Virus record (IMG/VR): IMGVR_UViG_3300036761_001580
Coordinates: 5,198-69,197 of that record
Strand: one strand, 5' to 3'
Source: a virus
Length of the DNA stretch: 64,000 nt
A model generated the notes under the pieces. It saw only the letters and a program-made list of their open reading frames with translations. It was not told the origin of the DNA and did no database searches. Position 1 is the first letter of the stretch, and every line of letters begins with the position of its first letter. A program made the translations under genes and the position numbers. Below, one piece after another: positions 44,844-61,926 of the stretch.

Positions 44844-45314
44844 ATGGGGGACAAGAAAAAACTCGGCTTGGCGGGGATACCGTCCATTTGCGGCTGGTGC
44901 GATATGGACCCGGAGAAACGAAAGGAAGAGAACCGGCGCAAGCCTCCTTGCGACCACTACGAGAGCCGCCCAAACTCGCATCCGTTCCTGTACGAAGCGT
45001 TCTGTAAACACTGTGAGCATCCTCCAAAGTGCCACCCCGGGTACACCGGATTCGGGTCTCTCGGTCCGAAGGTCAGCGAAGTGCTCAAACCGAAGAAGCC
45101 GAGCCTGAACCGCCGGCCGAACGCCCTCTCGAAGCAGAAAGCTCTCGCGCTGGAGTGGTCCCACGAACTCAGCGAGATCTACAAGAAGCTGAACACCGCC
45201 AAGGTGGCGCTGAGGAAGATCGCCTCGTGCAAGAGCGTTGTCGAGGGAGACGTCGTCGACATCGCGCAGAAGGCTCTGAAGCAGATCGAACCCTCTACCG
45301 GGGAGCCTGAGTGA
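44844..45314 (+). CDS. Hypothetical Cys/His-rich protein
   Basis: Start MGDKKKLG. Immediately upstream of rtcB. Confidence 0.35.
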   Translation: MGDKKKLGLAGIPSICGWCDMDPEKRKEENRRKPPCDHYESRPNSHPFLYEAFCKHCEHPPKCHPGYTGFGSLGPKVSEVLKPKKPSLNRRPNALSKQKALALEWSHELSEIYKKLNTAKVALRKIASCKSVVEGDVVDIAQKALKQIEPSTGEPE

Positions 45315-46633
45315 TGTTCACGATCCAAGGAAAGTATACAACAGCCACGGTGTTCGCGGATCAGGTGGAGGCCAGCTGCATCGCGCAGATCACAAGTATG
45401 GTCAACAACGCGGCCTTCACGGAGCCTGTGGTCATCATGCCGGACACGCATGCAGGCGCGGGATCGGTGATCGGTTTCACGATGCCTCTGGGCGGCGCGA
45501 TCATCCCAAACATCGTGGGTGTCGACATCGGCTGCGGCGTGCTGGCAGCGCGAGTTCCCTGGCGCACGGACATCAGCCTGGAGAAGCTCGACCGCGAGAT
45601 CCGAGCGCGAGTACCCTTCGCGCACGAGGTACGGTCTGACAACCACCACGAGCTGTCAGAGGGGGATCTGTTCTACGACGAGACGCACGCCATGCTGACC
45701 GTGACGCGCCGCAAGCTGAACGCGCGGTTCGCAGGAGACGGGTTCCAGGCGCTGGACTGGGGGGCATCCCATAGGGGATTCGAGGAGCTGTGCCAGCGGG
45801 TTGGCATGAAGTACGGGCGGGCGCAGCGGTCCATCGGATCCCTGGGCGGCGGCAACCACTTCATCGAGATCGGTCGCGGTGTGTTGCGCGATCATGCCTG
45901 GGTGCTGGTTCACAGTGGGTCGCGGCAGCTTGGTGAGAAGATCTGCAAGTACCACCAGCGGGTGGCGGCCGAGAAGCTCCTGAACTTCAAAACCGGTGAG
46001 TACCAATCCGAGATCGAGGTGATCCGGAGCACGGCACCGCGGAACGAGATCGATGCACGAGTCAAGGCGTACAAGACTGCGCAGCGAGCACTGGTGGCGA
46101 CACCAAGCGGACTGGAGCCGCTGCACGGCGAGGACCTGTTCTCCTACGTGGAGGACATGGTCTTTGCGCAATCGTATGCGGCGCAGAATCGCAGCGCGAT
46201 CATGACCGAGGTGCTGGAGGCAATCGGCATGGGCCCGGGTGTGAACGTGATGGGGATCGACACGGTGCACAACTACATTGATCCGGTGGACCTGGTCATC
46301 CGCAAGGGTGCGGTGGCGGCACGCGAAGGCATGTCACTGGTCATCCCGTTCAACATGCGGGACGGCAGCTGGTACTGCCGCGGGAAGGGCAACCCGGACT
46401 GGAACTGCTCGGCACCGCACGGGGCGGGCCGCCTTATGAGCCGATCCCAGGCCAAGCGCGAACTGGACCCAGCCGCGGCGCGAGCGAGCATGAAGGGGAT
46501 CTACACGAGCTGCATCCCTCTGGACGAGGCTCCTGCGGCGTACAAGGACGCAACGGCGATCCGAACAGCTATCGGGCCGACGGTCGAGGTGATCGAGGAG
46601 ATCCACCCGATCCTCAACCTGAAGGCGGAGTAA
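45311..46633 (+). CDS. rtcB: RNA 3'-phosphate/5'-OH ligase RtcB
   Basis: MPDTHAGAG, GGGNHFIEIG, HNYID and CSAPHGAGR motifs match RtcB active-site signatures over a 440-aa protein. Confidence 0.8.
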   Translation: MMFTIQGKYTTATVFADQVEASCIAQITSMVNNAAFTEPVVIMPDTHAGAGSVIGFTMPLGGAIIPNIVGVDIGCGVLAARVPWRTDISLEKLDREIRARVPFAHEVRSDNHHELSEGDLFYDETHAMLTVTRRKLNARFAGDGFQALDWGASHRGFEELCQRVGMKYGRAQRSIGSLGGGNHFIEIGRGVLRDHAWVLVHSGSRQLGEKICKYHQRVAAEKLLNFKTGEYQSEIEVIRSTAPRNEIDARVKAYKTAQRALVATPSGLEPLHGEDLFSYVEDMVFAQSYAAQNRSAIMTEVLEAIGMGPGVNVMGIDTVHNYIDPVDLVIRKGAVAAREGMSLVIPFNMRDGSWYCRGKGNPDWNCSAPHGAGRLMSRSQAKRELDPAAARASMKGIYTSCIPLDEAPAAYKDATAIRTAIGPTVEVIEEIHPILNLKAE

Positions 46634-48418: not shown

Positions 48419-48447
48419 TTGACTTTCCCATCGACAGTGTCTATATA
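48419..48447 (+). promoter_or_regulatory. Sigma70-like promoter TTGACT-N17-TATATA
   Basis: cctcTTGACTttcccatcgacagtgtcTATATAggt. Confidence 0.55.
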
Positions 48448-48453
48448 GGTAAG

Positions 48454-48645
48454 ATGAAGACGCGCCTACAGTTCGACTTCAATGACGAGCAGCTGGAGCT
48501 TCTGGAAGACCTGATGTCCAGGCTGACGGCCTCCTCGCGCGCCGAGGTGGTCCGCAGGGCGTTGCACCTGATGGACCTTGTCCAGAGCGGACAGCTGAAG
48601 GTGATCGACAAGGACGGGATCTCCCGAGAGGTCCTGCTCATCTGA
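48454..48645 (+). CDS. Ribbon-helix-helix (CopG/Arc-like) DNA-binding protein
   Basis: SRAEVVRRALHLM beta-strand/helix signature. 63 aa. Confidence 0.45.
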   Translation: MKTRLQFDFNDEQLELLEDLMSRLTASSRAEVVRRALHLMDLVQSGQLKVIDKDGISREVLLI

Positions 48646-48655
48646 AAGGAACCCC

Positions 48656-48913
48656 ATGAAGGGTATGGAGAAGAAGGTTCTGGCCGCCTACCGGAAGGTG
48701 TACGAAGCCGAGAAGGCTCTTCACGAGATCGTCGAGAAGGCCTTCCCCGTTGGTACGGAGGTGACCTGGGTAACGACTCGGAACGCCCTGAGCTTCACCC
48801 AGACAGGTGTGGTGATCCGTCTCGGCTACGACGACGAAGTCATCATTCGCAACATGAGCACGGGTAGGACCTCCCGGCACTCGGCCAGGTACCTGTCCTA
48901 CGCGCCGCTGTGA
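48656..48913 (+). CDS. Hypothetical protein
   Basis: 85-aa ORF. Confidence 0.35.
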   Translation: MKGMEKKVLAAYRKVYEAEKALHEIVEKAFPVGTEVTWVTTRNALSFTQTGVVIRLGYDDEVIIRNMSTGRTSRHSARYLSYAPL

Positions 48914-48923
48914 GGAGAAGATC

Positions 48924-49187
48924 ATGAACACCACCTGTTACCTGGTCGGATACATCGACCCGAAGACCCGCACGGTCACGCACGTCCAGACGGCGAGCGA
49001 GTCCGCCCAGTCGATCACGGCGCTCTTCAGCGAGTTTCCGTTCGACATCGACAACGTCTCCGCGGAGGACTACGGAGCGGCGAGGAAGAAGATGGTGGCG
49101 CTGCTCCACGAGAAGAGCACCTGGCCCAGGTGGGGCTGGATGTGGGACCTCCTCGAAGAGGACTGCAAGGAAGCGCTGGAGGACTGA
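48924..49187 (+). CDS. Hypothetical protein
   Basis: 87-aa ORF. Confidence 0.35.
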   Translation: MNTTCYLVGYIDPKTRTVTHVQTASESAQSITALFSEFPFDIDNVSAEDYGAARKKMVALLHEKSTWPRWGWMWDLLEEDCKEALED

Positions 49188-49190
49188 ACG

Positions 49191-49508
49191 ATGGATCCAA
49201 AAATAGGCTACGTCATCCGGATCGACGAGGACCCCAAGTACGCTGCGCAGTGCCGAGCGGAGAACCCCTGCCACATCACGAGGAGCGTCGTTCACATCCT
49301 TCCTGGAGAAGGATACCGCGCCCTGTACAAAGACTCCTGGGGAGGGGGTCTGCGCATGGGGTACGAGACCCTGAAAGACGCTCAAGAGGCTCTCGACCGC
49401 CACATAGCGCATGAAGGTCATTTGTGGCAAAACAGCACCTACACCTTCGTCAAGATCACGGTCACCGAGGAAGACCTCCCAGCATCGCAGAAAGCTCTGG
49501 AGGACTGA
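49191..49508 (+). CDS. Hypothetical protein
   Basis: 105-aa ORF. Confidence 0.35.
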   Translation: MDPKIGYVIRIDEDPKYAAQCRAENPCHITRSVVHILPGEGYRALYKDSWGGGLRMGYETLKDAQEALDRHIAHEGHLWQNSTYTFVKITVTEEDLPASQKALED

Positions 49509-49509
49509 G

Positions 49510-49773
49510 ATGTCTCAAGACCCATTGAACAACTCGGGCAGGGCCTTCAAGTCGGCCGACGACTGGATCCTGTGGTACGAGAAGCAAGCGTCCAAGGGAG
49601 AAGAAGAACTAGGGTTTGAAGAAGTTTATGAGGCCGGCTACTACCGTGGAGCCGTGGAGACCCAGGACCTCATCATCGCCAAGGTCGAGGAACTCTGCCA
49701 GAAGTACCCGAGTGTCCGCTTTGTGCAGGCGATCAAGGACCTCCGGGAGATGCTGAAAAGGACCAGCAAGTGA
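49510..49773 (+). CDS. Hypothetical protein
   Basis: Start MSQDPLNN. Confidence 0.35.
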   Translation: MSQDPLNNSGRAFKSADDWILWYEKQASKGEEELGFEEVYEAGYYRGAVETQDLIIAKVEELCQKYPSVRFVQAIKDLREMLKRTSK

Positions 49774-49911
49774 AAACCTGGTTCGTGAATGAGCAAGGGG
49801 CCTGCTACAGTATTCAAAGTGCCAGCGAGGCGGCAAGAGACCTCGACATCGACCAGCACATCGTCCCGGTGTCTCAGAAATCTCTAGACGTTCTGGAACC
49901 CTTCTGGCCTC

Positions 49912-49939
49912 TTGACTTTCCCCCAGGCATGACTATATA
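49912..49939 (+). promoter_or_regulatory. Sigma70-like promoter TTGACT-N16-TATATA
   Basis: cctcTTGACTttcccccaggcatgacTATATAgtg. Confidence 0.55.
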
Positions 49940-49969
49940 GTGCAGGATGACAACTCGAAAGGGGCTGTG

Positions 49970-50422
49970 ATGAAAGAGCAGGAGACCTGGACCTGGGAAG
50001 AGATTGCAACAACTTGGGAACACATTAGAGAGGACATGTGCCGGTGGGACCAGCAAAGGTCCATGACAAAGGTTTACCTGGAGAAGATCCCTCCGAAGTG
50101 GCGGCCGGGGATCGCTCTGGCGCTGGCACTGGAGAAGTGGAAGCCCGGAGCGAAGGGCCGTGGGTGCGGAACCTGCGCGCTCTGCGTCCTCTACAGGGTG
50201 ATGAACCACCCCGAAGACGTGGGGGAAGAGAAGCACTGTAGGGAGTGCCCTCTCGCCGCGAAAGATAGGTTCTGTACCCGCGCGGGCTCCCTCTTCAGGG
50301 AGTACCACCACGAGGCTGCCGAGATAGCTCTCGGAGGTCTCGACGGGAAGAAGGCCGTGAAGATTGCGGACAAGCTCTACAACCTCCTAGTGGAGTGCTA
50401 CCGCGAGGAGTACGAACGATGA
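49970..50422 (+). CDS. Hypothetical Cys-rich protein
   Basis: Start MKEQETW after AAAGGGG. CGTCALC...HCRECP. Confidence 0.4.
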   Translation: MKEQETWTWEEIATTWEHIREDMCRWDQQRSMTKVYLEKIPPKWRPGIALALALEKWKPGAKGRGCGTCALCVLYRVMNHPEDVGEEKHCRECPLAAKDRFCTRAGSLFREYHHEAAEIALGGLDGKKAVKIADKLYNLLVECYREEYER

Positions 50423-50967
50423 GCACGCCGGTCGCCTGCGAGGTAGCTCTGCGGTGCACGAGCCCGGAAGGGCCCGCCAGGGTGTGTGCGTTCTACTCAA
50501 CGTACACCCCGCCCACCCCAGGGTACCCGGGGTGGTGCAAGTACGCGAGCACTCCTGCGGGGTTCTGTGGGCACCCTCAGGCGCGGCTTCTAGCCATCCG
50601 CGAGGCTGTGCGCGAGGTGATGGGGTTCCTGCCGGATCTTTCACCACCGTTCGATGCGGAGGCCTACTGGACGAAGGAGCAGTCTAGGGTGCTGGCGGAG
50701 CAGGTGGACCGGGAAGACCAGATCAAGCTCCGAGAAGTGATCGAGGAGCGCGTCAAGAACGACGAGTGCCCCGACTGCGGGCTGAAGCTCACCTTCACCG
50801 ACGAGGGGGACTTCACCGGCTTCGACGGGGACGCGCAAGGTCTGAAGAGAGTGGGTGTGACCTGCCAGAGGTGCAAAACTTTCACTACGTGCATTTACAC
50901 CAAGGACGACAAGAGGTGCCCGTGGGGTGAGCTGACCTCGACGGTGAAGAAAGGACGTGCGGAGTGA
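50419..50967 (+). CDS. Hypothetical Cys-rich protein
   Basis: Start MSTPVACE. CPDCG...CQRCK. Confidence 0.4.
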   Translation: MSTPVACEVALRCTSPEGPARVCAFYSTYTPPTPGYPGWCKYASTPAGFCGHPQARLLAIREAVREVMGFLPDLSPPFDAEAYWTKEQSRVLAEQVDREDQIKLREVIEERVKNDECPDCGLKLTFTDEGDFTGFDGDAQGLKRVGVTCQRCKTFTTCIYTKDDKRCPWGELTSTVKKGRAE

Positions 50968-51956
50968 GCGAAGCCCTCGAAAAGTACAAGGAGCTGCGGG
51001 ACTACCTCGCAGATGGGCTCGACACCTGCAAGGTGACCGCCGCCCAGGAAGACGTGATCCTGAACACTCTGGACATTCTGTGGGACCAGCTGACGGACGA
51101 GGATCGCAAGCTCTTGGACACGGAGGAGCCGCGAGTCTGCCTCCCTGATGCCTCTCCCTACCTACCCCTGCCTCCGCACGCCGCCAAGGTGCTGGACGCA
51201 GCGCAAAAGCAGATTGCCGCCCTCGAAGCGGCGCTCGCCGAGCTGACAGACTCGGCACGGTGCAACGATGCGTTCCTCGATGGGCTGCGCGCCGAGATCG
51301 CCCGCCTCACCGCCTCGCTCGCGGCCGAGAGGGAGCGGCTTGTTGTCATGACGGCGCAAGCGGACCACTTCGCCCGACGTTCAGAGGAAATGCGAACCAG
51401 TGCGTGCACTTTGGAGGTGCAACGTGACGCCGCCGTTGCGAGAGCGGAGAAGGCGGAGAGGCGTTTCACCGCGCCTGTTGTTTGTATCTGTGGTTCGACG
51501 AAGTTCAAGCAGGCGTGGATCGCCGAGAACGCACGACTAACAGGAGAGGGCAACATCGTGCTCGCGGTCGGGTTGTGGGGACATCATGAACGGATATTCC
51601 CCGACACCGAGACAAAGACACGACTCGACGACTTGCATAAACGGAAGATCGACCTGTGCAATTGGGTTTGGGTGCTCGACATCGGCGGCTACGTCGGCGA
51701 GAGCACGCGATCTGAAATCGCCTACGCAGAAAAGCTCGGGCGTCCGGTGCGGCGGCTATCGCTGGAGTTCCCCGATTACGTCGAGCCATCCGATCCACTC
51801 GCCGCCGCTCGCGACGATGCGGTGAGGGGGTTCGCGGAGTGGTTGGACGAAACAGGACATGACATCGCGCCGAGTGGTGTTGTCGGTGTGACACTGTTTG
51901 AAAACGCGGACTCGGCGCTCGCCCGCTTCCTCGCTCGAAAGGAGCCGACCGAATGA
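50964..51956 (+). CDS. Coiled-coil protein with C-terminal nucleoside 2-deoxyribosyltransferase-like (NDT/DUF4406-type) domain
   Basis: C-terminus VLDIGGYVGESTRSEIAYAEKLGRPV resembles the NDT-family ...D.G...GT..EIGYA..LGKPV catalytic region. The assignment is tentative. Confidence 0.4.
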   Translation: MSEALEKYKELRDYLADGLDTCKVTAAQEDVILNTLDILWDQLTDEDRKLLDTEEPRVCLPDASPYLPLPPHAAKVLDAAQKQIAALEAALAELTDSARCNDAFLDGLRAEIARLTASLAAERERLVVMTAQADHFARRSEEMRTSACTLEVQRDAAVARAEKAERRFTAPVVCICGSTKFKQAWIAENARLTGEGNIVLAVGLWGHHERIFPDTETKTRLDDLHKRKIDLCNWVWVLDIGGYVGESTRSEIAYAEKLGRPVRRLSLEFPDYVEPSDPLAAARDDAVRGFAEWLDETGHDIAPSGVVGVTLFENADSALARFLARKEPTE

Positions 51957-52122
51957 AAGAGAAAAACCCGACGGTGATCCGTGTCACGCAATCGCCGATG
52001 GACGCAAAACGGTGGTGCCTTGAACTGTCATGCGGACACGAACTATGGGTTACAGCGGCCCAAAGGCCGAACGGGAAAACGAAACGGTGCCCAACGTGCC
52101 TCGCTCGAAAGGAGCCGACCGA
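51929..52122 (+). repeat. 24-bp direct repeat CCTCGCTCGAAAGGAGCCGACCGA (x2) bracketing a 146-bp mini-gene
   Basis: Copies at 51929-51952 and 52099-52122. Both encode ...LARKEPT(E/D) and supply the RBS (AAGGAG) for the next gene. Confidence 0.8.
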
Positions 52123-52129
52123 TGGGTGA
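51953..52129 (+). CDS. Mini zinc-ribbon ORF (58 aa) flanked by the direct repeats
   Basis: MKEKNPTVIRVTQSPMDAKRWCLELSCGHELWVTAAQRPNGKTKRCPTCLARKEPTDG. Below the ORF-track cut-off. Confidence 0.3.
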   Translation: MKEKNPTVIRVTQSPMDAKRWCLELSCGHELWVTAAQRPNGKTKRCPTCLARKEPTDG

Positions 52130-52337
52130 TGTGAAATGCAAGTGCCACGCGATAGAAGATGAAATTCGCGAGTGCCATCCCGCCGACGATTGGAACTGCG
52201 ATAAGTCGTGTCAGGAATGGCACAACCGAGTCGGGGAACTGGAAGACAAGGGGATCGAATTCGACGACGGCGCGGATGAAAACTACGGCTGTACTTGCCC
52301 GACGTGCGGGAGAATGATTTGTGGGTGGTGCGTATGA
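52122..52337 (+). CDS. Small Cys-rich protein
   Basis: MGDVKCKCHAIEDEIRECHPADDWNCDKSCQEWH...CTCPTCGRMICGWCV. Confidence 0.35.
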   Translation: MGDVKCKCHAIEDEIRECHPADDWNCDKSCQEWHNRVGELEDKGIEFDDGADENYGCTCPTCGRMICGWCV

Positions 52338-52684
52338 CTAGCACCCTACGCGCTCAAGCCGCTGTGGCGGCGGTACGAGAATGTCCGTTGTTCCTTGCTT
52401 CTTGCGACCGTAGTTGTAGCGAGGAACAGATCGCGATCTGCGAGCGGAATGATGCTGCGTTTTATGCTCTCGGCCACGCTGCGGGCGTGTCGGAGGGCGC
52501 GAGGAGGTTCGCGGAATACATCGACGCGAATTACACGGGCGTCGAGTGCTTCCAAACCGATGCCGAGAGTTGCGACGGTGTAGTCGCGGTTACGGACTCG
52601 ATTTCAGTTCTGGGGCACTACCTCTCCTCCCTCGCGCCCGGCACGGTGCTTGCTACGGGAGAGGGACAGAAAGAGGAGGGATGA
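52334..52684 (+). CDS. Hypothetical protein
   Basis: Start MTSTLRAQ (ATGA coupling). Confidence 0.35.
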   Translation: MTSTLRAQAAVAAVRECPLFLASCDRSCSEEQIAICERNDAAFYALGHAAGVSEGARRFAEYIDANYTGVECFQTDAESCDGVVAVTDSISVLGHYLSSLAPGTVLATGEGQKEEG

Positions 52685-52685
52685 G

Positions 52686-53198
52686 ATGAGCACACAGAAG
52701 CCGCACCCGGTGGACGTAGCGATGAGCGAGATGGCGTTGAGCGCACGCACGCCGCACCCGGAGGAATTCGAGTCTAGTTACCAGATGCGCGAGGCGCAGC
52801 CGGGCGAATGCGTCAACAGTACGGACATTACCATCCGCGCCCCCGGCCACGGGCAGGGGACGGAGGAGGAGCGGGTGAAGCGGATCGTCGAGATACTGAA
52901 AGCCGAGTGCAAACCGCGATGGATAAGCGGTGTACTGTGGGCTGATCTGGCGCGCCGAATCCTCGCCGCCGCCGCCTCCGTGCCGGTACCGGCCGTGGAG
53001 TGGACGACGGAGCGCATGAAGAATCTCGGAGTCTGCCACAACGGGCAAGCCGACGCGATAGTTGATGGTGCATCTGGAACGTGTGCGCTCTGGCCGAGTC
53101 AGGAGATGGACGGACTGCCGTGTATGTCGTGCTCATACTTCGAGGACGCGCGGCTCCGCATCGAGCCGCCGGTGACGAAGGGGGAGGTGTCGAAGTGA
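52686..53198 (+). CDS. Hypothetical protein
   Basis: Start MSTQKPHP. Confidence 0.35.
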   Translation: MSTQKPHPVDVAMSEMALSARTPHPEEFESSYQMREAQPGECVNSTDITIRAPGHGQGTEEERVKRIVEILKAECKPRWISGVLWADLARRILAAAASVPVPAVEWTTERMKNLGVCHNGQADAIVDGASGTCALWPSQEMDGLPCMSCSYFEDARLRIEPPVTKGEVSK

Positions 53199-53400
53199 AT
53201 CAGGCATTCGATGCAGCGGAGAGAAAGGGGCGCAATGCCTTTCTCGAAGGACGTCCACGAACAGCCTGCCCATACGAGGACAAACGGACGCCACGTCACA
53301 ACCACACTACATTCTCGCGAGCGTTTCGAACCGCATGGTTCAAGGGATGGGACGCAGCCGCCCTCACACCTCCCGCCGATGACGAAGGAGGCCCGCGATG
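53195..53400 (+). CDS. Ribosome modulation factor (RMF)-like small protein (tentative)
   Basis: GTG start overlapping the upstream stop. ERKGRNAFLEGRPRTACPY...AWFKGW resembles the RMF G..AG....CPY...W.GGW signature, with a longer spacer. Confidence 0.3.
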
Positions 53401-53757
53401 ACTGACGCACGGTTCGAGGAGCTGCTGGAGGCGTTCGAGGCTGCGGCGATGGACCTGAATAGCGAGCCGTGTCTCAGCACGTCCTATCGAGGGTACGCCG
53501 AGACGAAACGCGCCGCCCGCGCCGCCCTCGTCGCGTACTTCGAGGAGCGTGTGACGACGGTCATGGAACGTCTCGATGTGATGCGCGACGGACTGGAAAA
53601 TGGGATGCAAGAAAACGAAGACGGAACCTACACCGTGATCTGGACGAAACGGCAGTTAGAGACAGCCAAGAAAGAGGCGAAACGGTTGTACGATAAACTG
53701 TTTGCAGAACCCGACGAGTTGCCTACTGTCGGAGCAATGGGGCACGGCCATGACTAG
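53398..53757 (+). CDS. Hypothetical protein
   Basis: 119-aa ORF. Confidence 0.35.
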   Translation: MTDARFEELLEAFEAAAMDLNSEPCLSTSYRGYAETKRAARAALVAYFEERVTTVMERLDVMRDGLENGMQENEDGTYTVIWTKRQLETAKKEAKRLYDKLFAEPDELPTVGAMGHGHD

Positions 53758-54223
53758 CGAAACGACCCCCGACATCGCGCCCCGCATCGTGGACGGGGAG
53801 CCGGTGTGCAGCGGGAGTGAGTGCTCGGCATGGGAGGGTGATAGGCACCCCGAAACTGAAAAACGATCAGAAGTTTGTGGCGGGTGTTCAGCGATGTTGA
53901 TTGGTCGAAACTATGACTCCGCTGTTGTTGCGAGTTCCGTGTGTCCTCCCGGCCTCCGCGCGCAGCGTGACGCGCTACAGGCAGAGAGAGACGCGGCGTT
54001 CACGGCGGGCGCTGGGGAGATGGCGAGACTGGTACACGATGAGATGGAACGTTGCATCGGAAAAGCGCGGAAGGCAAAGGAGATTACGCGCACGGCCCGA
54101 CTCCGGTGTGAAATGGGTGCTGTGGTCGGCTGGATCGCGACATTGCAAGAGGAAATGTTCATAAATCCTGAGACGCGGCTGCGCGCCTCCCTTCCCGCGC
54201 AGATCGTGGACGAGGAGACCTGA
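53750..54223 (+). CDS. Hypothetical Cys-rich protein
   Basis: Start MTSETTPD. Confidence 0.3.
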   Translation: MTSETTPDIAPRIVDGEPVCSGSECSAWEGDRHPETEKRSEVCGGCSAMLIGRNYDSAVVASSVCPPGLRAQRDALQAERDAAFTAGAGEMARLVHDEMERCIGKARKAKEITRTARLRCEMGAVVGWIATLQEEMFINPETRLRASLPAQIVDEET

Positions 54224-54224
54224 G

Positions 54225-54662
54225 ATGGTATCCGCCGAGCTACGAGAAATCATCAGTTGCGGTGACTGCACTGAACGCGAGTGTGATGGTATCAGCTGCT
54301 TGAGGAGCAAGGTCTCCAAGCTCGAAGACGAGCTGGAGCGCCTGAAGCTCTACGAGTCCGAGCACGAGCGCCTCAAGAGCGAGCTGAACCGGATCCTCCA
54401 CCCGAACGGCGACGGGCCCAAGGCCCCGAGCTTCTGCGATCTCGTCGCCTACGTCGAGTTCGACTTCAGGAAGCTCAAGGACTACAACAAGGCCCTCGTC
54501 GAAAACCTGGAGCCCATGATCGAGGAGGATCTGCAACGGATACTGGGACATCCCGCTCGGGTCGAGCGGGTGGCAAACTTGCTGTGTCGAAGCGTGCCAC
54601 CGTGCGAAATGCACATCGACCAGGCCAGACGTGTTCTCGCCGCCGCCGACAGAGAGGACTGA
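54225..54662 (+). CDS. Hypothetical protein
   Basis: 145-aa ORF. Confidence 0.35.
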   Translation: MVSAELREIISCGDCTERECDGISCLRSKVSKLEDELERLKLYESEHERLKSELNRILHPNGDGPKAPSFCDLVAYVEFDFRKLKDYNKALVENLEPMIEEDLQRILGHPARVERVANLLCRSVPPCEMHIDQARRVLAAADRED

Positions 54663-54665
54663 ACG

Positions 54666-54911
54666 ATGGGCTTCTCAATGAAGGTACGAACCGAGACCGA
54701 CGCCGCCATTTGCCGGAGGAAAGGTTGGGTGGTTGGGACCCGCATCGTCGGCACCGAAACAGGACCCACCCAATCGTTCACAAGCACCATCGAGATCACC
54801 GCCATCGGGGTCGAGTGCATCCTGGCGAGGACAGTGCTCCCGGACGGGAAGTTCAGCCAAGAGCAGGCCTGGTCGTTGCAGTGGCGAGACTGGAAGGAGG
54901 TTCCTCGATGA
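54666..54911 (+). CDS. Hypothetical protein
   Basis: 81-aa ORF. Confidence 0.3.
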   Translation: MGFSMKVRTETDAAICRRKGWVVGTRIVGTETGPTQSFTSTIEITAIGVECILARTVLPDGKFSQEQAWSLQWRDWKEVPR

Positions 54912-55609
54912 GAGCACCCTGCAAGAACTACAATGCCTACGACGTGAACTGCGTCAATTGCCCTGTAGAAGTCGACCCGGACTGCGACAGGTTCGAGTCT
55001 CTCGACAAGAAGGCACCTCAGGACACCTCAGGACCTTGTCGGGAGTGCGGCAGTGTTGCCCACAGCACCGCAGCGCACCCCTTCCAGGAGGGCGACACAG
55101 CCCCGAAGAGGGACCCCTTGGCGAAGGCCTGGAAGTTCCTGCTGCGCCGGCACGACGGCCACCCGGATCAGCTGTGGGTTACAAAGAACGGCGATCTGGG
55201 AACCAAACAGCTCTACACCGACATCTTCGTCGGCACCGAGGAGCAGGCCGGGAGGGAGAGGACCCGCCGGGAGGACAAGCACGACGAGAAGGTCATGCTG
55301 TACGGAGTCATCCCTGGGATCGTCTGCCTGGAGGAGATGACCCCCACCTACGGATCCCCCGAGCCTGCTCCCGATCCCCCTCTCGCGGTCGGCCAGCTTC
55401 CGGTGCTCACCCTCGGAGAGCGGTTGGTCTGGGCGGCGGAGTTCTCCGCGTCGGCACGGTGGAACCGGAGCCTGGATCCCCTTCTGCGCCAGAAGTGCGC
55501 CCTGGAGGATGCCTTGGAGGCGGTGCTCTTCATGCGCAGGACCGCGGGGAACAACCCTCTCGGAGACAGCCAAGCTGCAATGATGCTCCACGACATGCTG
55601 AAAGAGTGA
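54908..55609 (+). CDS. Hypothetical protein with N-terminal Cys cluster
   Basis: Start MRAPCKNYNAYDVNCVNCP (ATGA coupling). The upstream part of ORF-track 54584..55609 is junk. Confidence 0.4.
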   Translation: MRAPCKNYNAYDVNCVNCPVEVDPDCDRFESLDKKAPQDTSGPCRECGSVAHSTAAHPFQEGDTAPKRDPLAKAWKFLLRRHDGHPDQLWVTKNGDLGTKQLYTDIFVGTEEQAGRERTRREDKHDEKVMLYGVIPGIVCLEEMTPTYGSPEPAPDPPLAVGQLPVLTLGERLVWAAEFSASARWNRSLDPLLRQKCALEDALEAVLFMRRTAGNNPLGDSQAAMMLHDMLKE

Positions 55610-55612
55610 CCC

Positions 55613-56689
55613 ATGTCAAAAAGATTCCCGATCATGAGCGGCCCGTCGATCCCTTGGGAGATGATCTCCCCCTACGAGGGACAGGCCCTGACGAACCACC
55701 AGCAGTCCCTGGAGGAGCTGGCCCGCCGCGGGGGTCTCGACCCGGCCGAGGCCCTGGCCGTGCTCTCCTGCCTGAAATGGAGAGACTCTCCGTGGAGTAA
55801 TCCGGTGGTCCGCAACTCGCCGGCCCCTCTGGAGGAGCTGGAGCGGCGCAGAGTCGAGTTCGAAGGTCCCCGAGAGAGGATCGCCCAGCTCGAAGCAGCC
55901 CTCCGAGACAAGGACCTGGCGCTGGCGGAGACCGGAGCGCTGGTGCTGAACCACGAGGGGCACCTCGCACGACTCGACGCCGAGCTGGAGAAGCTGACCG
56001 AACGCTTCGACGACTCCGAGGCCGAGAACGGGAACCTTGGCGAGGAGTGCGGCAGGCTGGAGGAGCAGAACGAGCGCCTCCTCAAGTACGAGGCCCAGTG
56101 CAACGTCCTCTCTCAGAAGTTCTGCAAGCACGCGATCTCGGAAGGAGTCCCCGCGGCGATTGCACACATCAAGGATCTCGAATCCAGGAATAACGCGCAG
56201 GCAGAAGAGATCGTGCGGTCGAGGAAGGAAATCACCAAGTTCCGGGATCGGGACGAGGAGCTGGGTGAGCAGGTCTTGATGGATTGGCGCGGACTGCGCG
56301 CCAAGCTGGCCGCGGCGCAGGAGGAGGCCATCCAAGGTCGTCACGCCGAACGGTGGGCGAGCGCTGCGATGGTCTACCTCGCCGGCAAGATCTCGACGCC
56401 CGAGAAGATCTCCCCCGAGTGGATACAGGAAGCGCTCAAGCACGCCGAGACGCTCCTCACGGGGCTGGACGGGGAGGCATGCGAGCAGTGGAGGGCGGCG
56501 CAGGCAGCGTTCCTCGCCGCCGCCAGCGAGGAGGCCGTGCAGGCTTTCGCGGACAAGGTTCAGAAGTTCTGCGTCGAGAGGCACGGGTTCGGGGCTGTTT
56601 ACGAATTCGTCAGCGATCTCATGTCGGGATCTTTAAACCCTCCCGCTGGTATTGCAACTTCATCACCTTCACGCCGTCGGGATCCTTAA
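55613..56689 (+). CDS. Coiled-coil protein whose 3' end runs into the first CRISPR repeats
   Basis: 358-aa. Last ~22 codons (DLMSGSLNPPAGIATSSPSRRRDP) are encoded by repeat 1, spacer 1 and repeat 2. Confidence 0.4.
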   Translation: MSKRFPIMSGPSIPWEMISPYEGQALTNHQQSLEELARRGGLDPAEALAVLSCLKWRDSPWSNPVVRNSPAPLEELERRRVEFEGPRERIAQLEAALRDKDLALAETGALVLNHEGHLARLDAELEKLTERFDDSEAENGNLGEECGRLEEQNERLLKYEAQCNVLSQKFCKHAISEGVPAAIAHIKDLESRNNAQAEEIVRSRKEITKFRDRDEELGEQVLMDWRGLRAKLAAAQEEAIQGRHAERWASAAMVYLAGKISTPEKISPEWIQEALKHAETLLTGLDGEACEQWRAAQAAFLAAASEEAVQAFADKVQKFCVERHGFGAVYEFVSDLMSGSLNPPAGIATSSPSRRRDP

Positions 56690-59067
56690 ACCGCCCCGCT
56701 GGTGCTGCAACCCTCTTCCCCCGGCACCTCATCGATCTCGGTCATCTTGTCGGGACTCCTAAGCCGTCCCGCAGGCACTGCAACAGCTGAAGAGCCCACC
56801 TCGTGTCAACGTCGTGTGTCGGGATTCCTAAGCCTTCCCGCAGGCATTGCAACTTGAGAATTGAAGAGGGTGTGATCCTGTTGTATCCCATGTCGGGATT
56901 CCTAAGCCTTCCCGCAGGCATTGCGACTCAACCGCCGAAGATAGGTTCTCCCTAACACGCCTCAGGTCGGGACTCCTAAGCCTTCCCGCAGGCACTGCAA
57001 CAGACCACTTCATGCCACGCACCACTGGCGGAGTCGGGAACTCTAAACCATCCCGCAGGCATTGAGATAGTCTTTCTGGCACAGTAAACGGAGGGTCCAT
57101 GCGGTCGGGGCTTCTAGTCACCCCGCAGGCATTGCAACTCCATCGGCAGAGATGACCACGACGAGTACAGGTGTCGGGAATCCTAAGACTTCCCGCTGGA
57201 ACTGCAACGAATACCTTCCTGCGGTCGTGACGCGAATCTGCCTTGTCGGGACTCCTAAACCGTCCCGCAGGTACTGCAATTTCCTCTAGGGACGCGCCTG
57301 CGGTCAGGCCATCTCGTGTCGGGAGTCCTAAACCCTCCCGCAGGCACTGCGACTGACACCTCGTCGGAGTACGACTACGCTCTCATTGCAGTCGGGACTT
57401 CTAAGCCCTCCCGCGGGCATTGCGGTTCACGAGGCACGTCGGGACTCCTAAGCCTTCCCGCAGGCGTTATGACCATGGCAAAGTGCGTGGTCGTCGGGAC
57501 TCCTAAGCCATCCCGCAGGCATTGAAACGATCTCGATGACGTGGCTCTGGAGGGCCGGGCGGCTGTCGGGACCTTTAAGCCGTCCCGCAGGCGTTAAAAC
57601 GCAGCCGACTCAGACAGCTTACACCCGCTGACTTTCCCGTCGAGACTCCTAAACCGTCCCGCAGGTACTGCGACTGGAACATCTGACACCCTTCACTGTA
57701 TGAGGCCGCGGTCGGGACTTCTAAGCCGTCCCGCAGGCGTTGAAACTCACCAGACCGTGCTCTCCGGGTCGAGATTCCTAAGCCATCCCGCAGGCGTTGA
57801 AACGGGGCTACCGTAGGGTCACCCGTTGGGGGGGGGGACCCCGTCGAGACTCCTAAGCCGTCTCGCAGGCGTTGAAACAGCTGATGGCCACTCCTTGCGC
57901 ACCCATCACCCCCCGTCGAGACTCCTAAGCCGTCTCGCAGGCGTTGAAACATCACCTCCACGCGCCGAGACGCTCAGCCGCTTCGCGGTCGAGACTCCTA
58001 AGCCGTCTCGCAGGCGTTGAAACTTCGTCGGAAAAGCCGAATTCGACCAGCCTCTTAACGTCGAGACTCCTAAGCCGTCTCGCAGGCGTTGAAACAGATC
58101 TGTGGGCCGGTCCAATTTCACAGCGTATGCGTCGTCGAGAGTCCTAAGCCCTCCCGCAGGCACTGCGACTAGTACTCCGCCACGGTCGAGACTCCTAAGC
58201 CGCCTCGCAGGCGTTGAAACAACTTCTTGGCCTTCACCTTCTCGCCGATCAGGTTGAGGTCGAGACTCCTAAGCCGTCTCGCAGGCGTTGAAACAATGGA
58301 TCGCTACGGGATCTCTTTCCCAGAGGCGGCCGTCGAGACTCCTAAGCCGTCTCGCAGGCGTTGAAACTTCATGGTTGATCAGTGGAAAAAATGGGAAAAG
58401 ATCTGGTCGAGACTCCTAAGCCGTCCCGCAGGAACTGCACCATCTTGGACCTCTTCGCGGAGTTCAGGTGCACCACGTCGGGGATCTTAAGCCTCCCCGC
58501 AGGCACTGTGACTAGGCCCTAAGGTACGCCTCGTCGGGAGTCCTAAACCCTCCCGCGGGCACTGCAACGAGTTGGGGGCCGGCGATGACCAAGGCCAAGG
58601 TCGGGAGTCCTTAAACCCTCCCGCGGGCACTGCGACACAGCATCTGCTACCCGGTCAAGCTCTCACCCGAGTGGTCGGGAATCCTAAGCCTTCCCGCAGG
58701 AACTGCACCTCCTCATGGCGAGGGGGCGAGCATGGCGGCGCGATGTCGGGAGTCTTACGCCCTCCCGCAGGCACTGCGACCTGATCTCTCTCATCCCATG
58801 GTCCAGATGCTCCAGGGGTCGGGAGTCATAACCCTCCCGCGGGCACTGCGACAGAGAATTCCGACGATGGTCCAACACTACTCGACATGTCGGGAGTCCT
58901 AAGCTCTCCCCGCAGGCACTGCAACGACGACGGGAAGGTCTTCCCGGCGCGGAACTCCTCGTTGGGATCCTTAGGCCATCCCACAGGCACTGCGACAACC
59001 CGCTACAGGGGGTCGGTCTGCTCAGGGAGAAGTTGGGATCCTTAGGCCATCCCACAGGCACTGCAAC
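56623..59067. CRISPR. CRISPR array, 36 repeats of 35-37 bp, 35 spacers (11-39 bp), four repeat families
   Basis: Family A (R19-22, R25, R26 identical) GTCGAGACTCCTAAGCCGTCTCGCAGGCGTTGAAAC. Family B GTCGGGACTCCTAAGCCGTCCCGCAGGCACTGCAAC. Family C GTCGGGAGTCCTAAACCCTCCCGCAGGCACTGCGAC. Family D (R35, R36) GTTGGGATCCTTAGGCCATCCCACAGGCACTGCGAC. Spacers are unique. The 6-bp stem covaries (CGAGAC/GTCTCG, CGGGAC/GTCCCG, CGGGAG/CTCCCG, TGGGAT/ATCCCA). Likely transcribed on the minus strand with the adjacent cas12-like gene, but orientation is unproven. Confidence 0.9.
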
Positions 59068-59108
59068 AGCAGCTCTGAAATCTTCCAAATTGTCAAAGAG
59101 CTACAGGC

Positions 59109-60941
59109 TCACGCGCGAGCGGCCTCGTGGTGCCGGCCGCGCTGGGCCCACTTCGCTGGTCTTTTCACGACAGGTTCTTCACTGTCATCGGGGCTCTCGC
59201 GGAACAGCTTCATGATGTTCTTGGTCGCGTTCGCATCCTGATCGAACACCACTCCGCACCCCTCACACTGATGATCCACCTGCGGGGCGGCATCCCACCG
59301 GCCTTCGAACCCGCACTCGAAATGGATCTGCGTCGTCATGGCCGGATCCACCTTGACCACCCGGCCGCCGCGGCTGACGAACGCCTGGATCAAGCAGTTT
59401 CTCAGATCCGAACACGCCGCATCCTTCTGCTGCAACCTTGCCGCAGCGATCTCCACCTCTTCACTCTCCGGAGGCTTGTGCACCTGCGTCTTCCGGAGAT
59501 CGAAGTCCTCGATGACCAGGACGGAGTAGCGCCTCGCCAGCTCCGCTCCGAGAACACGGTACTGGTCCTTCCGGCGGCGCAGGGACTTCTTCCGCTGGTG
59601 CTCCTGCCACTGCCACAGGTGTCGGTCTCCGCCATCGTAGCGCCCGAGGTCCCCGCGCCACGCCCCTTGGTGCCAGGCGCGCAGCACCTCGAACCCCACC
59701 TCGTCGTCCATCCAGCGCTCCGCCCCCCAGCGCTTCAGCAGCGCCACGAAGCGCCCGGGGGCCCTCCACTTCGAGAAGTGGCGGATCTCCTCGACCATCG
59801 GAGCCGGCATCATCCCGGTGTGCGCCTCCAGCCAAGGACCCAGACGCGCCATCATCTCGTTCATGGCCTTGGAGCGGATCGACTCCAGGTCTTCCACCTT
59901 TCTCAGGCCAGACAGCACCCCAGGGTCGATGCGCACCTCACGCTCGTGCCCCTCGTCGTCTCGCAGGTAGGAAACCCGCACGCCGCCGTCCTCCAGGAGC
60001 CTCCAACCGATGTCGACCGCCACAGCCCCACTCCCGCACACCTCCGTGCGATTCTTAGCCCCGAAGGTCCGCGTCTCGTTGGGCACGTTCAACGTCAGGT
60101 GCAAGGACCACTGATCGTGGCTCGACACCATCTCGCGCTTCACGGTAGCCCAGACCACCGTCGAGCCTTCGGGAAGGGGGCGGTGCATCAGGATGGGCCA
60201 CTCCGCCCAGATCGGTTTCCGGTCCTCGCCCGTACCCACCCGCAGGCGCAGGACGCCGAACCGACGCTTCTGAGCGCTCTTCGAGGAACTTCGAGGCTCC
60301 TCTATCTGGAGCTGCACCCACTGGTCCGTGCAGCGAAGCACGTCGCCCACCCCGAGGATGCGGTTCTGGATATGCACCGCCACGGTACCACTGCCGTCCC
60401 AGCGACGAAAACGCGGGTTGTTGGGCTTCCCGTACCTCCAGAGAGGCATCTTCTTCGAGGCATCTACAGCGGCTTCAACCTGCTGGTAGGTGCCCCACGG
60501 GACCCCACAGATGGCCCGGGCTGCCCGTCTTTTCTCTTCTGCGCGGTTACTGATCTCCTTCATTGCCTGCGTGGTCGCCGGATTCTTCTCTCTGGCTGCT
60601 CGGGCTTCTTTGACCGCCAGCAGAGCCGCCTTCTTCTCCTCGCGCAACAGCTTCACGCGATCTCGCTGCTCTTGGGTATCCGACCGGCTGCGTGTAGACG
60701 CACGCTGCCGCTTCAACTCCTCAAGAGCCCTCGACAGCTCTGCGTCGACCGCCACGACTCTCTGCAACAGGTCAGCTATCGCGACGTCCTCCTCCGCCAA
60801 GACCTGCCTCAGAGCGTCTCGACGCTCACACTCGATCTCGATGAGGCGGTTATTGTAGCGATGCCCTAGACGCATCAGCTCGTTGATCAGCTCTACGTTT
60901 CCGGTCGGACGCCTCACACCGTACTTGGATACGATCATCAT
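59109..60941 (-). CDS. Cas12/TnpB-like RuvC nuclease (compact type V effector candidate, 610 aa)
   Basis: RuvC-I AVAVDIGWRLL, RuvC-II VLVIEDFDL, zinc finger HFECG...CEGCG, RuvC-III DQDANATKNI (TnpB/Cas12 'DxDxNAAxNI'). ~380-aa N-terminal extension as in Cas12f/j-size effectors. Stop is 41 bp from CRISPR repeat 36. RBS GGAGGG. Confidence 0.7.
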   Translation of the reverse strand: MMIVSKYGVRRPTGNVELINELMRLGHRYNNRLIEIECERRDALRQVLAEEDVAIADLLQRVVAVDAELSRALEELKRQRASTRSRSDTQEQRDRVKLLREEKKAALLAVKEARAAREKNPATTQAMKEISNRAEEKRRAARAICGVPWGTYQQVEAAVDASKKMPLWRYGKPNNPRFRRWDGSGTVAVHIQNRILGVGDVLRCTDQWVQLQIEEPRSSSKSAQKRRFGVLRLRVGTGEDRKPIWAEWPILMHRPLPEGSTVVWATVKREMVSSHDQWSLHLTLNVPNETRTFGAKNRTEVCGSGAVAVDIGWRLLEDGGVRVSYLRDDEGHEREVRIDPGVLSGLRKVEDLESIRSKAMNEMMARLGPWLEAHTGMMPAPMVEEIRHFSKWRAPGRFVALLKRWGAERWMDDEVGFEVLRAWHQGAWRGDLGRYDGGDRHLWQWQEHQRKKSLRRRKDQYRVLGAELARRYSVLVIEDFDLRKTQVHKPPESEEVEIAAARLQQKDAACSDLRNCLIQAFVSRGGRVVKVDPAMTTQIHFECGFEGRWDAAPQVDHQCEGCGVVFDQDANATKNIMKLFRESPDDSEEPVVKRPAKWAQRGRHHEAARA

Positions 60942-60996
60942 CTCTCAGGTCCCTCCTCGCTCTGCAAATCCAGTTACCATTCGGCCTAGCTGTAAC

Positions 60997-61025
60997 TATA
61001 TAGGCATGCCTGAGGGGGAAGTCAA
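60997..61025 (-). promoter_or_regulatory. Sigma70-like promoter TTGACT-N17-TATATA driving the cas12-like gene
   Basis: Minus reading cctcTTGACTtccccctcaggcatgccTATATAgtt. Confidence 0.55.
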
Positions 61026-61056
61026 GAGGGTGCACTGCGAAAACTTTTTGAGTCCC

Positions 61057-61392
61057 TCACGCCGGGAGTCGACCGAGCTTCTCGATCATGCGGGAGTAGA
61101 CGCGCAGGGACAGCTCCAAGCAGTGCCTAAAGGCATACTGCTGGTGCTCTTCCCGGGAGACCCACTCGTTGCCTGCCGGGTCCCACAGCGGGCAGCACCG
61201 GCACCCACCCCAGTTGCAGTAGTCCCTGTCGTAGAGGCTGTACCTGCCGTCCTCGATGGTCTCGGCGATCACCATCGCGACCTTGCCCCGGTCCCCATAC
61301 ACCTCCAGGAACTCCGAGTACGCCGGCCCGTTCAGCGCCGCGATCTCCTCCCAGGTCCACGGGGTCGGATCGCTGTAGTTCACCTTCTTCAT
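61057..61392 (-). CDS. Hypothetical Cys/Trp-rich protein
   Basis: 111-aa ORF. Confidence 0.35.
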   Translation of the reverse strand: MKKVNYSDPTPWTWEEIAALNGPAYSEFLEVYGDRGKVAMVIAETIEDGRYSLYDRDYCNWGGCRCCPLWDPAGNEWVSREEHQQYAFRHCLELSLRVYSRMIEKLGRLPA

Positions 61393-61547
61393 AGCCCTTG
61401 CTCCTCCAGATCCTTCAGATCGTCATCGTCCTCGTCGTAGAACTCGACGTGGTCGTCACAGGCCTCGCAGAAGTAGGTTCCTTTGTCGTCGACCGGATCC
61501 ATGTCCTCGCCGCACTCCGGGCACGGGCGCTTCTTGAGCTTCTCCAT
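61389..61547 (-). CDS. Small zinc-ribbon protein
   Basis: Start at MEKLKKRPCPECGEDMD...CEACDDH. The longer ORF-track N-terminus overlaps the upstream gene. Confidence 0.3.
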   Translation of the reverse strand: MEKLKKRPCPECGEDMDPVDDKGTYFCEACDDHVEFYDEDDDDLKDLEEQGL

Positions 61548-61822
61548 CACCAGGCCTCCCCCGCGGCGCGGATGCACCCGTCGAACTTGAAGTCCTGGAT
61601 CACGATGGTCAGGACCCGCGGCCCCTTCTGGACATACCCAATGTGGTCTCCACCCTCCTGAGGGTACACCGGCTTGATCGGCCGGGTCTCCGACACGGAC
61701 ACGGAGATCTTCGACATGTCCTCCCGTCTCCGGTACTCGTGCAGGCGTGCCACCAGGTAGTCCAGGGTCTCCAGGTTCAACGCATTGATCTCCTCTTGGG
61801 AGGGAACCTTCGGCTGCTCCAT
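61547..61822 (-). CDS. Hypothetical protein
   Basis: Start taken at MEQPKVPSQEEINAL. The N-terminal part of the ORF-track call is Arg/Thr junk. Confidence 0.3.
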   Translation of the reverse strand: MEQPKVPSQEEINALNLETLDYLVARLHEYRRREDMSKISVSVSETRPIKPVYPQEGGDHIGYVQKGPRVLTIVIQDFKFDGCIRAAGEAW

Positions 61823-61926
61823 GGGCTCCCCGGTCGTCTTGACCTCCCGCGGCTTCGTCCTAGTTGTAGTCTTCCTCCCGTACCGACCTTCACCTGTAGA
61901 CCTCGTCATCCCCTTGCTCCTTCTGG

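Follow-up and report, generated by a model that had tools for sequence, protein, structure and literature searches.

The present analysis suggests that a 64,000-nucleotide stretch of viral DNA (IMG/VR record IMGVR_UViG_3300036761_001580, positions 5,198 to 69,197; hereafter the window) carries a type V-M CRISPR–Cas cassette on the genome of a jumbo phage, and that solitary copies of the same repeat elsewhere in the window use the sequence at their 3′ flank as guides against the corresponding alleles of sister phages. We regard this as the best explanation of the locus, with a probability of roughly 0.72. The initial annotation, made from the sequence without database searches, had described a Cas12-family RuvC single effector beside a genuine CRISPR array, and the motifs, the profile match and the array anatomy bear this out. 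The relatives fetched for comparison, contigs and loci alike, are numbered with the prefix L; among them L060, L061 and L068 are sister phages, and L065 and L066 are near-identical strains. The cassette and its parts are as follows.

56623–61056, minus strand: accessory cassette of about 4.4 kb (promoter, cas12m and array), absent from sister phage L068
60997–61025, minus strand: promoter-like site TTGACTTCCCCCTCAGGCATGCCTATATA (TTGACT-N17-TATATA), from a motif count against expectation
59109–60941, minus strand: cas12m gene, 610 amino acids (aa), from its open reading frame (ORF), motifs, and profile, Protein Data Bank (PDB) sequence and fold matches
56623–59067, minus strand: CRISPR array, 36 repeats and 35 spacers (2445 bp), from a covariance model built on the repeats

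The 610-aa protein is a Cas12m, a member of a known family and not of a new lineage, because the PADLOC profile, the sequence match to solved structures and the fold agree. Type V-U1 is the former name of type V-M, and the PADLOC profile Cas12u1 aligns positions 3–529 of its 533 with residues 2–579 (expectation value E = 1.1e-97); the PADLOC “Cas12f” model PDLC01692 also matches the full length (E = 4e-91), with a score below that of Cas12u1. Among PDB sequences searched with phmmer, the closest solved relative is 23vw_A, a Cas12m of 577 aa that matches over residues 6–579 (E = 6.8e-70) and is entitled “CRISPR-associated DNA-binding protein Cas12m”; the other solved Cas12m proteins matched are Cas12m2 (8hio and 8hhl, E about 1e-21 to 8e-22), 8pm4 (8e-21) and UnCas12m4a (6e-17). 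The AlphaFold2 model (predicted local distance difference test 88.7, predicted template modeling score 0.78) agrees with the Cas12m fold (WED, sickle-shaped REC1/REC2, RuvC and TNB domains), and its N-terminal 300 residues form REC domains. Its top four Foldseek matches are all Cas12m structures, with template modeling (TM) scores of 0.59–0.78, three of them at least 0.71 and those for the Cas12m2 and GoCas12m structures 8hhl, 8pm4 and 8hio at 0.76–0.78. All other families reach at most 0.59 (Cas12f, TnpB), CasPhi (7odf) scoring 0.27 and CasLambda (8dc2) 0.29. Sequence identity to characterized Cas12m orthologs is only about 20–35%. Pfam recognizes the TNB domain only, and the NCBIfam TnpB and Cas12f models fall far under their cut-offs (NF040570, 32.9 bits against 100; NF038281, 15.5 bits against 425), which is why the protein had looked unclassified.

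Other assignments were rejected: Cas12j (CasPhi) and Cas12l (CasLambda) on the TM scores just given and because neither is among the sequence matches to solved structures; Cas12f because the similarity is confined to the C-terminal TNB/RuvC region and the fold TM is 0.34–0.38 (query-normalized); and IS200/IS605 TnpB because the NCBIfam scores lie below cut-off, a CRISPR array is present, the protein has N-terminal REC domains, and no TnpA is found among the window ORFs.

All three RuvC motifs first read from the ORF are present in TnpB/Cas12 order (D310 in VAVDIGW, E478 in VIEDFDL and D569 in FDQDANATKNI), and the predicted mass of the protein is 70.05 kDa. The zinc finger had been described as CxxC; this holds for its second pair of ligands (559–562), and the first pair is HxxC (540–543). 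Across an alignment of 40 homologs E478 and D569 are nearly invariant, and the first aspartate is D in 33, N in five and H in one, a variation that corresponds to the “gradual inactivation” described for type V-M (PMC10691335). The window protein and its closest relatives retain the D-E-D triad. The initial annotation had named loss of the RuvC residues and membership in IS200/IS605 TnpB as grounds against its effector call; the triad is conserved on alignment and the protein lies outside that TnpB group. Its term “nuclease” is doubtful, since every Cas12m tested, including four D-E-D orthologs, binds double-stranded DNA (dsDNA) without cleaving it: proteins with D-E-D, H-D-D and N-D-D active sites all bind, in a manner that depends on a protospacer-adjacent motif (PAM), and none cleaves (PMC11013384).

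The array begins 41 nt from the cas12m stop codon, on the same strand, and its 36 repeats, 2445 bp and 35 unique spacers agree with the array of about 2.4 kb first described. The repeats are 35–37 nt long, with the minus-strand consensus GTTGCAGTGCCTGCGGGAnGGCTTAGGAGTCCCGAC, which contains a 6-bp hairpin near the 3′ end and terminates in GAC. They are very divergent, with a mean pairwise identity of 78.5%, a minimum of 61% and 31 distinct sequences among the 36, so that standard CRISPR callers would see only the block of near-identical repeats; the covariance model recovers 36 of 36 at 44–62 bits. Despite this divergence the repeats keep their invariant positions and terminal GAC, and the hairpin covaries: 95% of cells are paired, four of the six base pairs have changed on both sides, the pairing and covariation scores observed were not attained by any of 500 shuffles, and sliding the 3′ partner lowers pairing to 26–56%. 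Folding energies of single repeats do not differ from those of shuffled sequences, and the hairpin therefore rests on covariation. The same divergent, compensated repeats with irregular spacing are found in the array of L010 (8670–9850), the closest IMG/VR relative, whose protein is 75% identical.

Similarity among the spacers in an all-against-all comparison is at the level of shuffled controls. Diverged duplicate spacers inside the array are thus unsupported, although Tandem Repeats Finder gave a 73-nt period. Seven spacers are short (11–21 nt), among them those at 57427–57437, 57474–57492, 57747–57767, 58170–58184, 58513–58532 and 56659–56675 (minus strand), and 31-nt spacers account for a further unusual spacing. 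The short lengths are near the 17–20-nt mature guide reported for Cas12m, so that these spacers may be either truncations or units of guide length, and most of these spacers could still work because published Cas12m guides are trimmed to about 17–20 nt. Reading of the array on the minus strand is supported by the related arrays, which share the strand of the gene (covariance-model matches in about 15 related loci), and by the 5′-handle/3′-guide layout of Cas12m CRISPR RNAs (crRNAs). The covariance model finds no antisense copy of the repeat near the locus, and there is no Rfam match; this is consistent with a single crRNA that needs no trans-activating crRNA (tracrRNA), as in type V-M.

Comparison with the sister phage L068 shows that promoter, cas12m and array form a discrete accessory cassette, because homology breaks precisely at both edges. 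L068 spans window positions 48434–61842 at 96–98% identity and contains neither cas12m nor an array. Its homology ends exactly where the last repeat has its outer end (56623) and restarts at about 61056 (61054–61057), immediately behind the stop codon with which the upstream zinc-ribbon gene closes, and 2.0 kb of unrelated genes occupy the place of the cassette. At the array end a convergent 358-aa ORF (55613–56689, plus strand) runs into repeats r36 and r35, which encode its final 21 codons; the sister-phage counterpart ends in GDLMRPTKPS and a stop. The sequence just beyond the last repeat is also the following feature.

56602–56622, minus strand: last-repeat 3′ flank ATGAGATCGCTGACGAATTCG, which matches the L068 allele after CTC at 20 of 21 positions and is also the 3′ end of ORF 55613–56689

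This flank is a putative terminal guide against the allele without the cassette.

Upstream of cas12m, the promoter-like TTGACT-N17-TATATA at 61025–60997 (minus strand) and an AGGAGG ribosome-binding site before the ATG are as first annotated. The extended motif TTGACTT(T/C)CCC...TATATA occurs three times in the window (48419–48447, 49912–49939 and 60997–61025) against zero expected, and probably represents a phage-specific promoter class, one copy of which would drive cas12m. A generic sigma-70 promoter and terminator scan of the region found nothing; the TATATA fails the second-hexamer rule of that scan. One transcript probably covers cas12m and the array, because no terminator-like site in the scan separates them. 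The lack of adaptation genes noted initially also held: no Cas1, Cas2 or Cas4 was found by Pfam among the 90 window ORFs, among the 25 families listed of the 54 matched by PADLOC, or in the 4.7 kb by which the identical Logan contig L004 extends past the end of the window. Type V-M has been described as lacking other cas genes as a family trait (PMC10691335), and their absence is no peculiarity of this locus.

The covariance model, run with filters off, also finds five solitary repeats in the window. In the list, X and X′ are the upstream and downstream copies of a 20-nt duplication.

S1, minus strand: match 37703–37733, 37.6 bits, E = 3e-10; unit 37686–37738, made of repeat 37703–37738 and a 17-nt flank GACAGCTTCAGGACGGA, from a sister-allele match
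S2, minus strand: match 31728–31755, 27.8 bits, E = 4e-7; unit 31708–31786, made of TTC, X (31764–31783), a 36-nt repeat (31728–31763) and X′ (31708–31727), an insertion relative to L065 and L066
S3, plus strand: match 39904–39938, 23.9 bits, E = 7e-6; unit 39882–39958, made of TTC, X (39885–39904), a 34-nt repeat (39905–39938) and X′ (39939–39958), an in-frame insertion in ORF 39447–39989
S4, plus strand: match 49818–49847, 17.7 bits, E = 7e-4; unit 49818–49867, in a non-coding gap of about 750 nt, with a TTGACT-N17-TATATA promoter about 65 nt downstream
S5, plus strand: match 41865–41890, 12.4 bits, E = 0.04; unit 41865–41910, made of repeat 41865–41890 and flank GGAGCCTGCCTCGGGATGGG, from its junction relative to L060

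At every junction that can be judged (S1, S2, S3, S5 and the array end), the sister allele has YTC, that is, TTC or CTC, directly 5′ of the flank, a motif expected by chance at one in 32 junctions each; in the carrier genome the same flanks follow the repeat end GAC or AAC. In each of the five sister alleles that match a repeat flank, YTC thus stands where a 5′ PAM would be expected, an indirect indication of the PAM, since no array spacer has a known protospacer. The S1 flank matches at 17 of 17 nt the interior of a 165-aa gene present in L060 (after TTC) and L061 (after CTC), and the window is without this gene. Likewise, the S5 flank is identical to L060 after TTC over 20 of 20 nt and over 40 nt beyond, inside an 87-aa L060 gene; in the window, the repeat stands in place of the 5′ part of this gene. 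The 211,982-bp genome IMG/VR UViG_3300031952_000001, which was not among the loci picked up by the Cas12m scan, carries the S1 and S5 target alleles.

S2 and S3 are insertion/absence polymorphisms. Relative to L065 and L066, in which the neighboring protein is 100% and the DNA 99.3% identical to the window, S2 adds 56 nt immediately behind TTC, and single-nucleotide differences at −4 and +21 flank this insertion. The empty allele reads ...GCGTTC, GTGAAGGATCTGCTCGCGTAG, CTCG and the window allele ...GCATTC, GTGAAAGACTTGCTTGCGTA, 36-nt repeat, GTGAAGGATCTGCTCGCGTA, TCTCG. The downstream copy, X′, has kept the ancestral sequence (20 of 20 against L065 and L066), and the upstream copy X has four differences. 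These are all synonymous, so that the native C-terminus VKDLLA, common to the whole protein family, is kept. In the more distant L070 (protein 73% identical) this site too holds the S2 repeat, matching at 34 of 34 positions, together with an X that is recoded in another way, and in L069 (78%) the site is empty. S3 is a 54-nt in-frame insertion after TTC, again with four X/X′ differences, all synonymous, and in both units these differences lie within guide positions 3–15. The resulting 18-aa protein insertion (DKVLAEE-HSASGTVEGPN) is found in the window, L061 and L060 and is lacking in six homologs, and the empty site in L062 and L063 reads ATCTTC, GACAAGG.

For S4 no empty allele was found, and L068 has the same filled allele. 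The gap in which it lies (49188–49939) has no convincing ORF, and L060 has two genes there (201 and 100 aa). Solitary repeats also occur in L003 and L055; no empty alleles were found for these, and no flanking duplications were found at them or at S1, S4 and S5. At L055 9132–9184 a solitary repeat is followed directly by its reverse-complement copy, an inverted pair that could be a tracr-like or anti-repeat element.

From these observations we infer a scheme of transcription, processing, PAM recognition, binding without cleavage and competition. The phage promoter would transcribe cas12m and then the array on the minus strand, and Cas12m itself would cut the precursor crRNA a few nucleotides into each repeat, yielding a handle of about 33 nt with the hairpin and a guide of about 17–20 nt. 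The complex would bind dsDNA having a 5′-YTC PAM beside a matching sequence, and bound Cas12m would most likely block transcription or replication rather than cut, like all tested Cas12m. Published Cas12m crRNAs are 50–60 nt long with an R-loop of about 20 bp (PMC11013384), and the PAMs reported are 5′-TTN (PMC10442227) and 5′-YTN, the latter with a guide of about 17 nt (bioRxiv 2026.03.26.714355). Solitary units transcribed within phage mRNAs would give extra guides against sister alleles or accessory genes: because each flank is the sister sequence that follows YTC, it would guide against genomes without the insertion. The carrier copy would be spared in one of three ways: through the GAC or AAC repeat end that takes the place of the PAM, through synonymous recoding of the duplicate beside the PAM, or through deletion of the target. 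Because the only targets found are alleles or accessory genes of close sister phages, the predicted role is most likely phage–phage competition during co-infection, which supports the use against competing mobile elements proposed in the initial annotation.

Several observations weigh against this explanation. A spacer search of the kind that the initial annotation had proposed yielded a convincing target for none of the 35 in the window, the fetched loci, INPHARED or PLSDB. With blastn-short, the masked window, 59 loci and the sister loci gave chance 12–15-nt matches only; the concatenated spacers had no match in INPHARED phages or PLSDB plasmids; and six exact single-spacer scans (five of IMG/VR, one of JGI metagenomes) were empty. 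The first 22 nt of spacer 12 (58221–58258) exactly match an HK97 gp10-like head–tail gene in the IMG/VR locus L067 (2792–2813), and the remainder diverges but encodes a homologous peptide (LNLIGEK...); L067 is probably not its true target because ACG, not YTC, precedes the match. Among the units themselves, the S5 covariance match is weak alone, L070 retains the S2 repeat with the guide deleted, and S3 and S4 are still present in sister phages apparently without cas12m, so that part of the solitary set may consist of relics. Unit formation, for example by spacer–protospacer recombination, could have left the YTC junctions as its footprint, in which case they would not prove guide action today, and cleavage by the 610-aa protein is possible given its intact D-E-D triad.

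The 20-nt duplication equals the reported guide or R-loop length and the 54–56-nt unit the reported size of a mature crRNA. These sizes fit a speculative origin in which a crRNA-sized unit was inserted at its own target and then escaped self-targeting; recombination between spacer and protospacer is an equally speculative alternative. A further idea, which we hold tentatively and with the odds against it, is that guides are made and spread here without Cas1–Cas2, a crRNA-sized unit becoming fixed between a YTC PAM and its protospacer. The native sequence would thereby become a guide against all genomes without the insertion, the carrier would escape by recoding or deleting the duplicate, and the units and, via repeat–repeat recombination, the whole cassette would behave, when jumbo phages infect together, as selfish “drive” alleles guided by RNA. 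If this were true, TnpB/omega-RNA logic and the CRISPR array would have a living intermediate in this locus, and arrays that lack adaptation genes would have a plausible way to grow.

A homing drive in which the D-E-D Cas12m cuts or nicks the empty allele of a co-infecting sister genome, and recombinational repair from the filled genome copies in the repeat unit or cassette, much as TnpB/omega-RNA preserves IS200/IS605, is unlikely, although parts of the evidence fit it. D310, E478 and D569 are intact and conserved in the closest relatives, and the layout of PAM, insert and target equals that of TAM (the target-adjacent motif of TnpB), element and guide flank. At the S2 site, L070 has the repeat with 34 of 34 positions identical, in a host gene of only 73% identity, and the element is absent from L065 and L066 with their 100% identical protein; the differences at −4 and +21 would fit co-conversion. 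However, four D-E-D Cas12m proteins studied in vitro gave neither dsDNA cleavage nor an adapter signal of the nicking type, nor any collateral activity (PMC11013384), the closest solved relative was deposited as a “DNA-binding protein,” and repeated loss could give the same patchy distribution.

The position of the solitary repeats raises the question of self-regulation, in which they would be sites in the phage's own polycistronic mRNAs where Cas12m binds or processes, controlling downstream stability or translation, and not weapons. All five are sense to the local genes and lie 26–120 nt upstream of a start codon, the S1 and S2 flanks contain or abut a ribosome-binding site, those of L003 and L055 likewise lie just upstream of a ribosome-binding site and ATG, and the S3 hairpin is preserved in L060 through a compensatory change. 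Such a role is not mutually exclusive with guide function; as a replacement for it we find it quite improbable, since it accounts neither for the coincidence of repeat 3′ ends with YTC-adjacent sister positions nor for the recoded duplicates.

That the array is a decaying, nonfunctional relic, drifting without an adaptation module, and the solitary repeats recombination debris, is very improbable. An average repeat identity of about 78%, seven truncated spacers and the failure to find any spacer target are what decay would leave. Against this stand the compensatory hairpin changes, with their pairing beyond that of every shuffle, the retained invariant positions and terminal GAC, the intact cas12m with conserved promoter and ribosome-binding site, the equally divergent yet pairing repeats of L010, and the non-random YTC junctions. 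The proposal of the initial annotation that the protein represents a hypercompact Cas12 nuclease of an unclassified lineage, intermediate between TnpB and Cas12f/j, to which its orphan look in libraries without Cas12m-aware models lent some color, is already refuted by its full-length placement with Cas12m on the profile and structure searches that the annotation had itself proposed.

The carrier is a jumbo phage of about 205 kb, because identical or sister sequences lie on contigs of 205–212 kb. The Logan contigs L004 and L064 (SRR11721628) equal the window at 100% identity, a 205,564-bp contig from the Joint Genome Institute (JGI) encodes a protein identical to one window ORF, and UViG_3300031952_000001 is a syntenic sister genome. 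The window (60.6% G+C) encodes a large terminase subunit (7640–9901; E = 1e-38) and a tail protein, and these genes together with the IMG/VR viral genome among the sister contigs confirm that the locus is phage-borne, as first claimed. When 24 kb of the window was compared with GenBank phages by megablast, nothing matched. Further window genes encode a Mor-like regulator, a sigma-70 region 4 regulator, an RtcB RNA ligase (45311–46633; Pfam E = 9e-61) and a thymidylate kinase (30359–31081). Phage RtcB is often tied to repair of tRNA cleaved by the host. Between the window equivalents of 44119 and 44125, where the window has nothing, L061 has a 1.9-kb insertion (11106–12974) with an IS605-type TnpB (394 aa; OrfB_IS605 and TNB domains) and a 198-aa gene.

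Relatives of this locus are numerous on viral contigs. A search of IMG/VR with a small alignment returned at least 50 viral loci (L010–L059) with Cas12m relatives of 22–75% identity, many on contigs of 80–200 kb, and in about 40 of the 50 the gene is followed directly, on its own strand, by an array of 36-nt repeats; GTDB representative genomes gave only five distant relatives. Additional arrays or mini-arrays are found in L022 and L047, and L055/L056 contain seven solitary repeats. In GenBank, the 197-kb Virus Rctr197k (L001, KX853510.1, 104408–122162; deposited 2016) has a 30%-identical homolog labeled “similar to transposase” beside an annotated CRISPR, and a second CRISPR next to a 467-aa “transposase-like protein.” Type V-M on prophages and one phage has already been noted (PMC11656645; bioRxiv 10.64898/2026.09.14.751636), and MvCas12m of myxophage MV-1, also of 610 aa, was reported in September 2026 as the first phage Cas12m (bioRxiv 10.64898/2026.09.14.751636). 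The two genes are different, because masses and catalytic residue numbers differ (69.01 kDa and D305/E463/D555 in MvCas12m).

As a plain Cas12m locus, the cassette is one more member of a known family, from a group of phage loci that is common on viral contigs yet barely reported. One Cas12m tolerating 31 repeat variants would be useful for guide-scaffold engineering. The repeat–guide units would supply the first concrete targets, sister phages, for a phage type V-M system and a 5′-YTC PAM predicted without experiment. They would also represent a natural CRISPR repeat used in the manner of an omega-RNA, its guide set by the adjacent genome sequence, and thus a testable route both to the gain and upkeep of guides in type V arrays without Cas1–Cas2 and to the origin of CRISPR arrays from TnpB guide RNAs.

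The literature searched describes neither repeats that diverge while compensating nor a cassette with such precise boundaries, nor in situ repeat–guide units at YTC junctions, and each known system resembles the window locus in part. MvCas12m shares phage carriage, a 610-aa D-E-D effector, an adjacent array, the lack of adaptation genes and the lack of spacer targets found. In contrast, only eight spacers were called for MV-1, and no solitary repeats or sister-allele targets are described; the eight may be an undercount, because standard callers report only a fragment of divergent arrays. The characterized type V-M systems (MmCas12m2, GoCas12m, MsCas12m and PmCas12m; 8hhl, 8pm4 and 23vw) have an effector of about 600 aa with the same fold (TM 0.76–0.78), a single crRNA without tracrRNA, 36-nt repeats with a hairpin near the 3′ end, an array directly downstream, no cas1, cas2 or cas4, carriage on mobile elements and a T-rich 5′ PAM, here predicted to be YTC. 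However, they are found on plasmids and bacterial chromosomes, and the window locus differs from them in its jumbo-phage carrier, long 36-repeat array, very divergent repeats and dispersed solitary repeat–guide units. CasPhi and CasLambda of huge phages are likewise compact single-effector type V systems without adaptation genes, but belong to different families (TM 0.27 and 0.29) and are active nucleases. Virus-borne mini-CRISPR arrays and solitary repeat units (PMC11656645) also consist of viral repeats with or without a spacer, serve inter-virus or anti-CRISPR conflict and have close relatives as targets. Those units use or inhibit host Cas proteins and lie away from their targets, whereas here the phage supplies the effector and the units lie at the targeted locus.

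The closest parallel in arrangement to the solitary repeats, as candidate in situ guides against sister-phage alleles, is TnpB/omega-RNA of IS200/IS605. In both, the guide is the DNA 3′ of the scaffold, the target is the empty site in which the TAM or PAM abuts the flank, and the insert parts the motif from the target in the filled site. Unlike IS200/IS605, the solitary units have no TnpA and no left or right element ends, their scaffold is a 36-nt repeat that would serve Cas12m in trans, and S2 and S3 are 54–56-nt units with a recoded target duplicate (the NCBIfam TnpB score of the effector being 33 bits against a cut-off of 100). Silencing of competitors, and equally silencing with added gene conversion (homing), would have the same topology as TnpB/omega-RNA.

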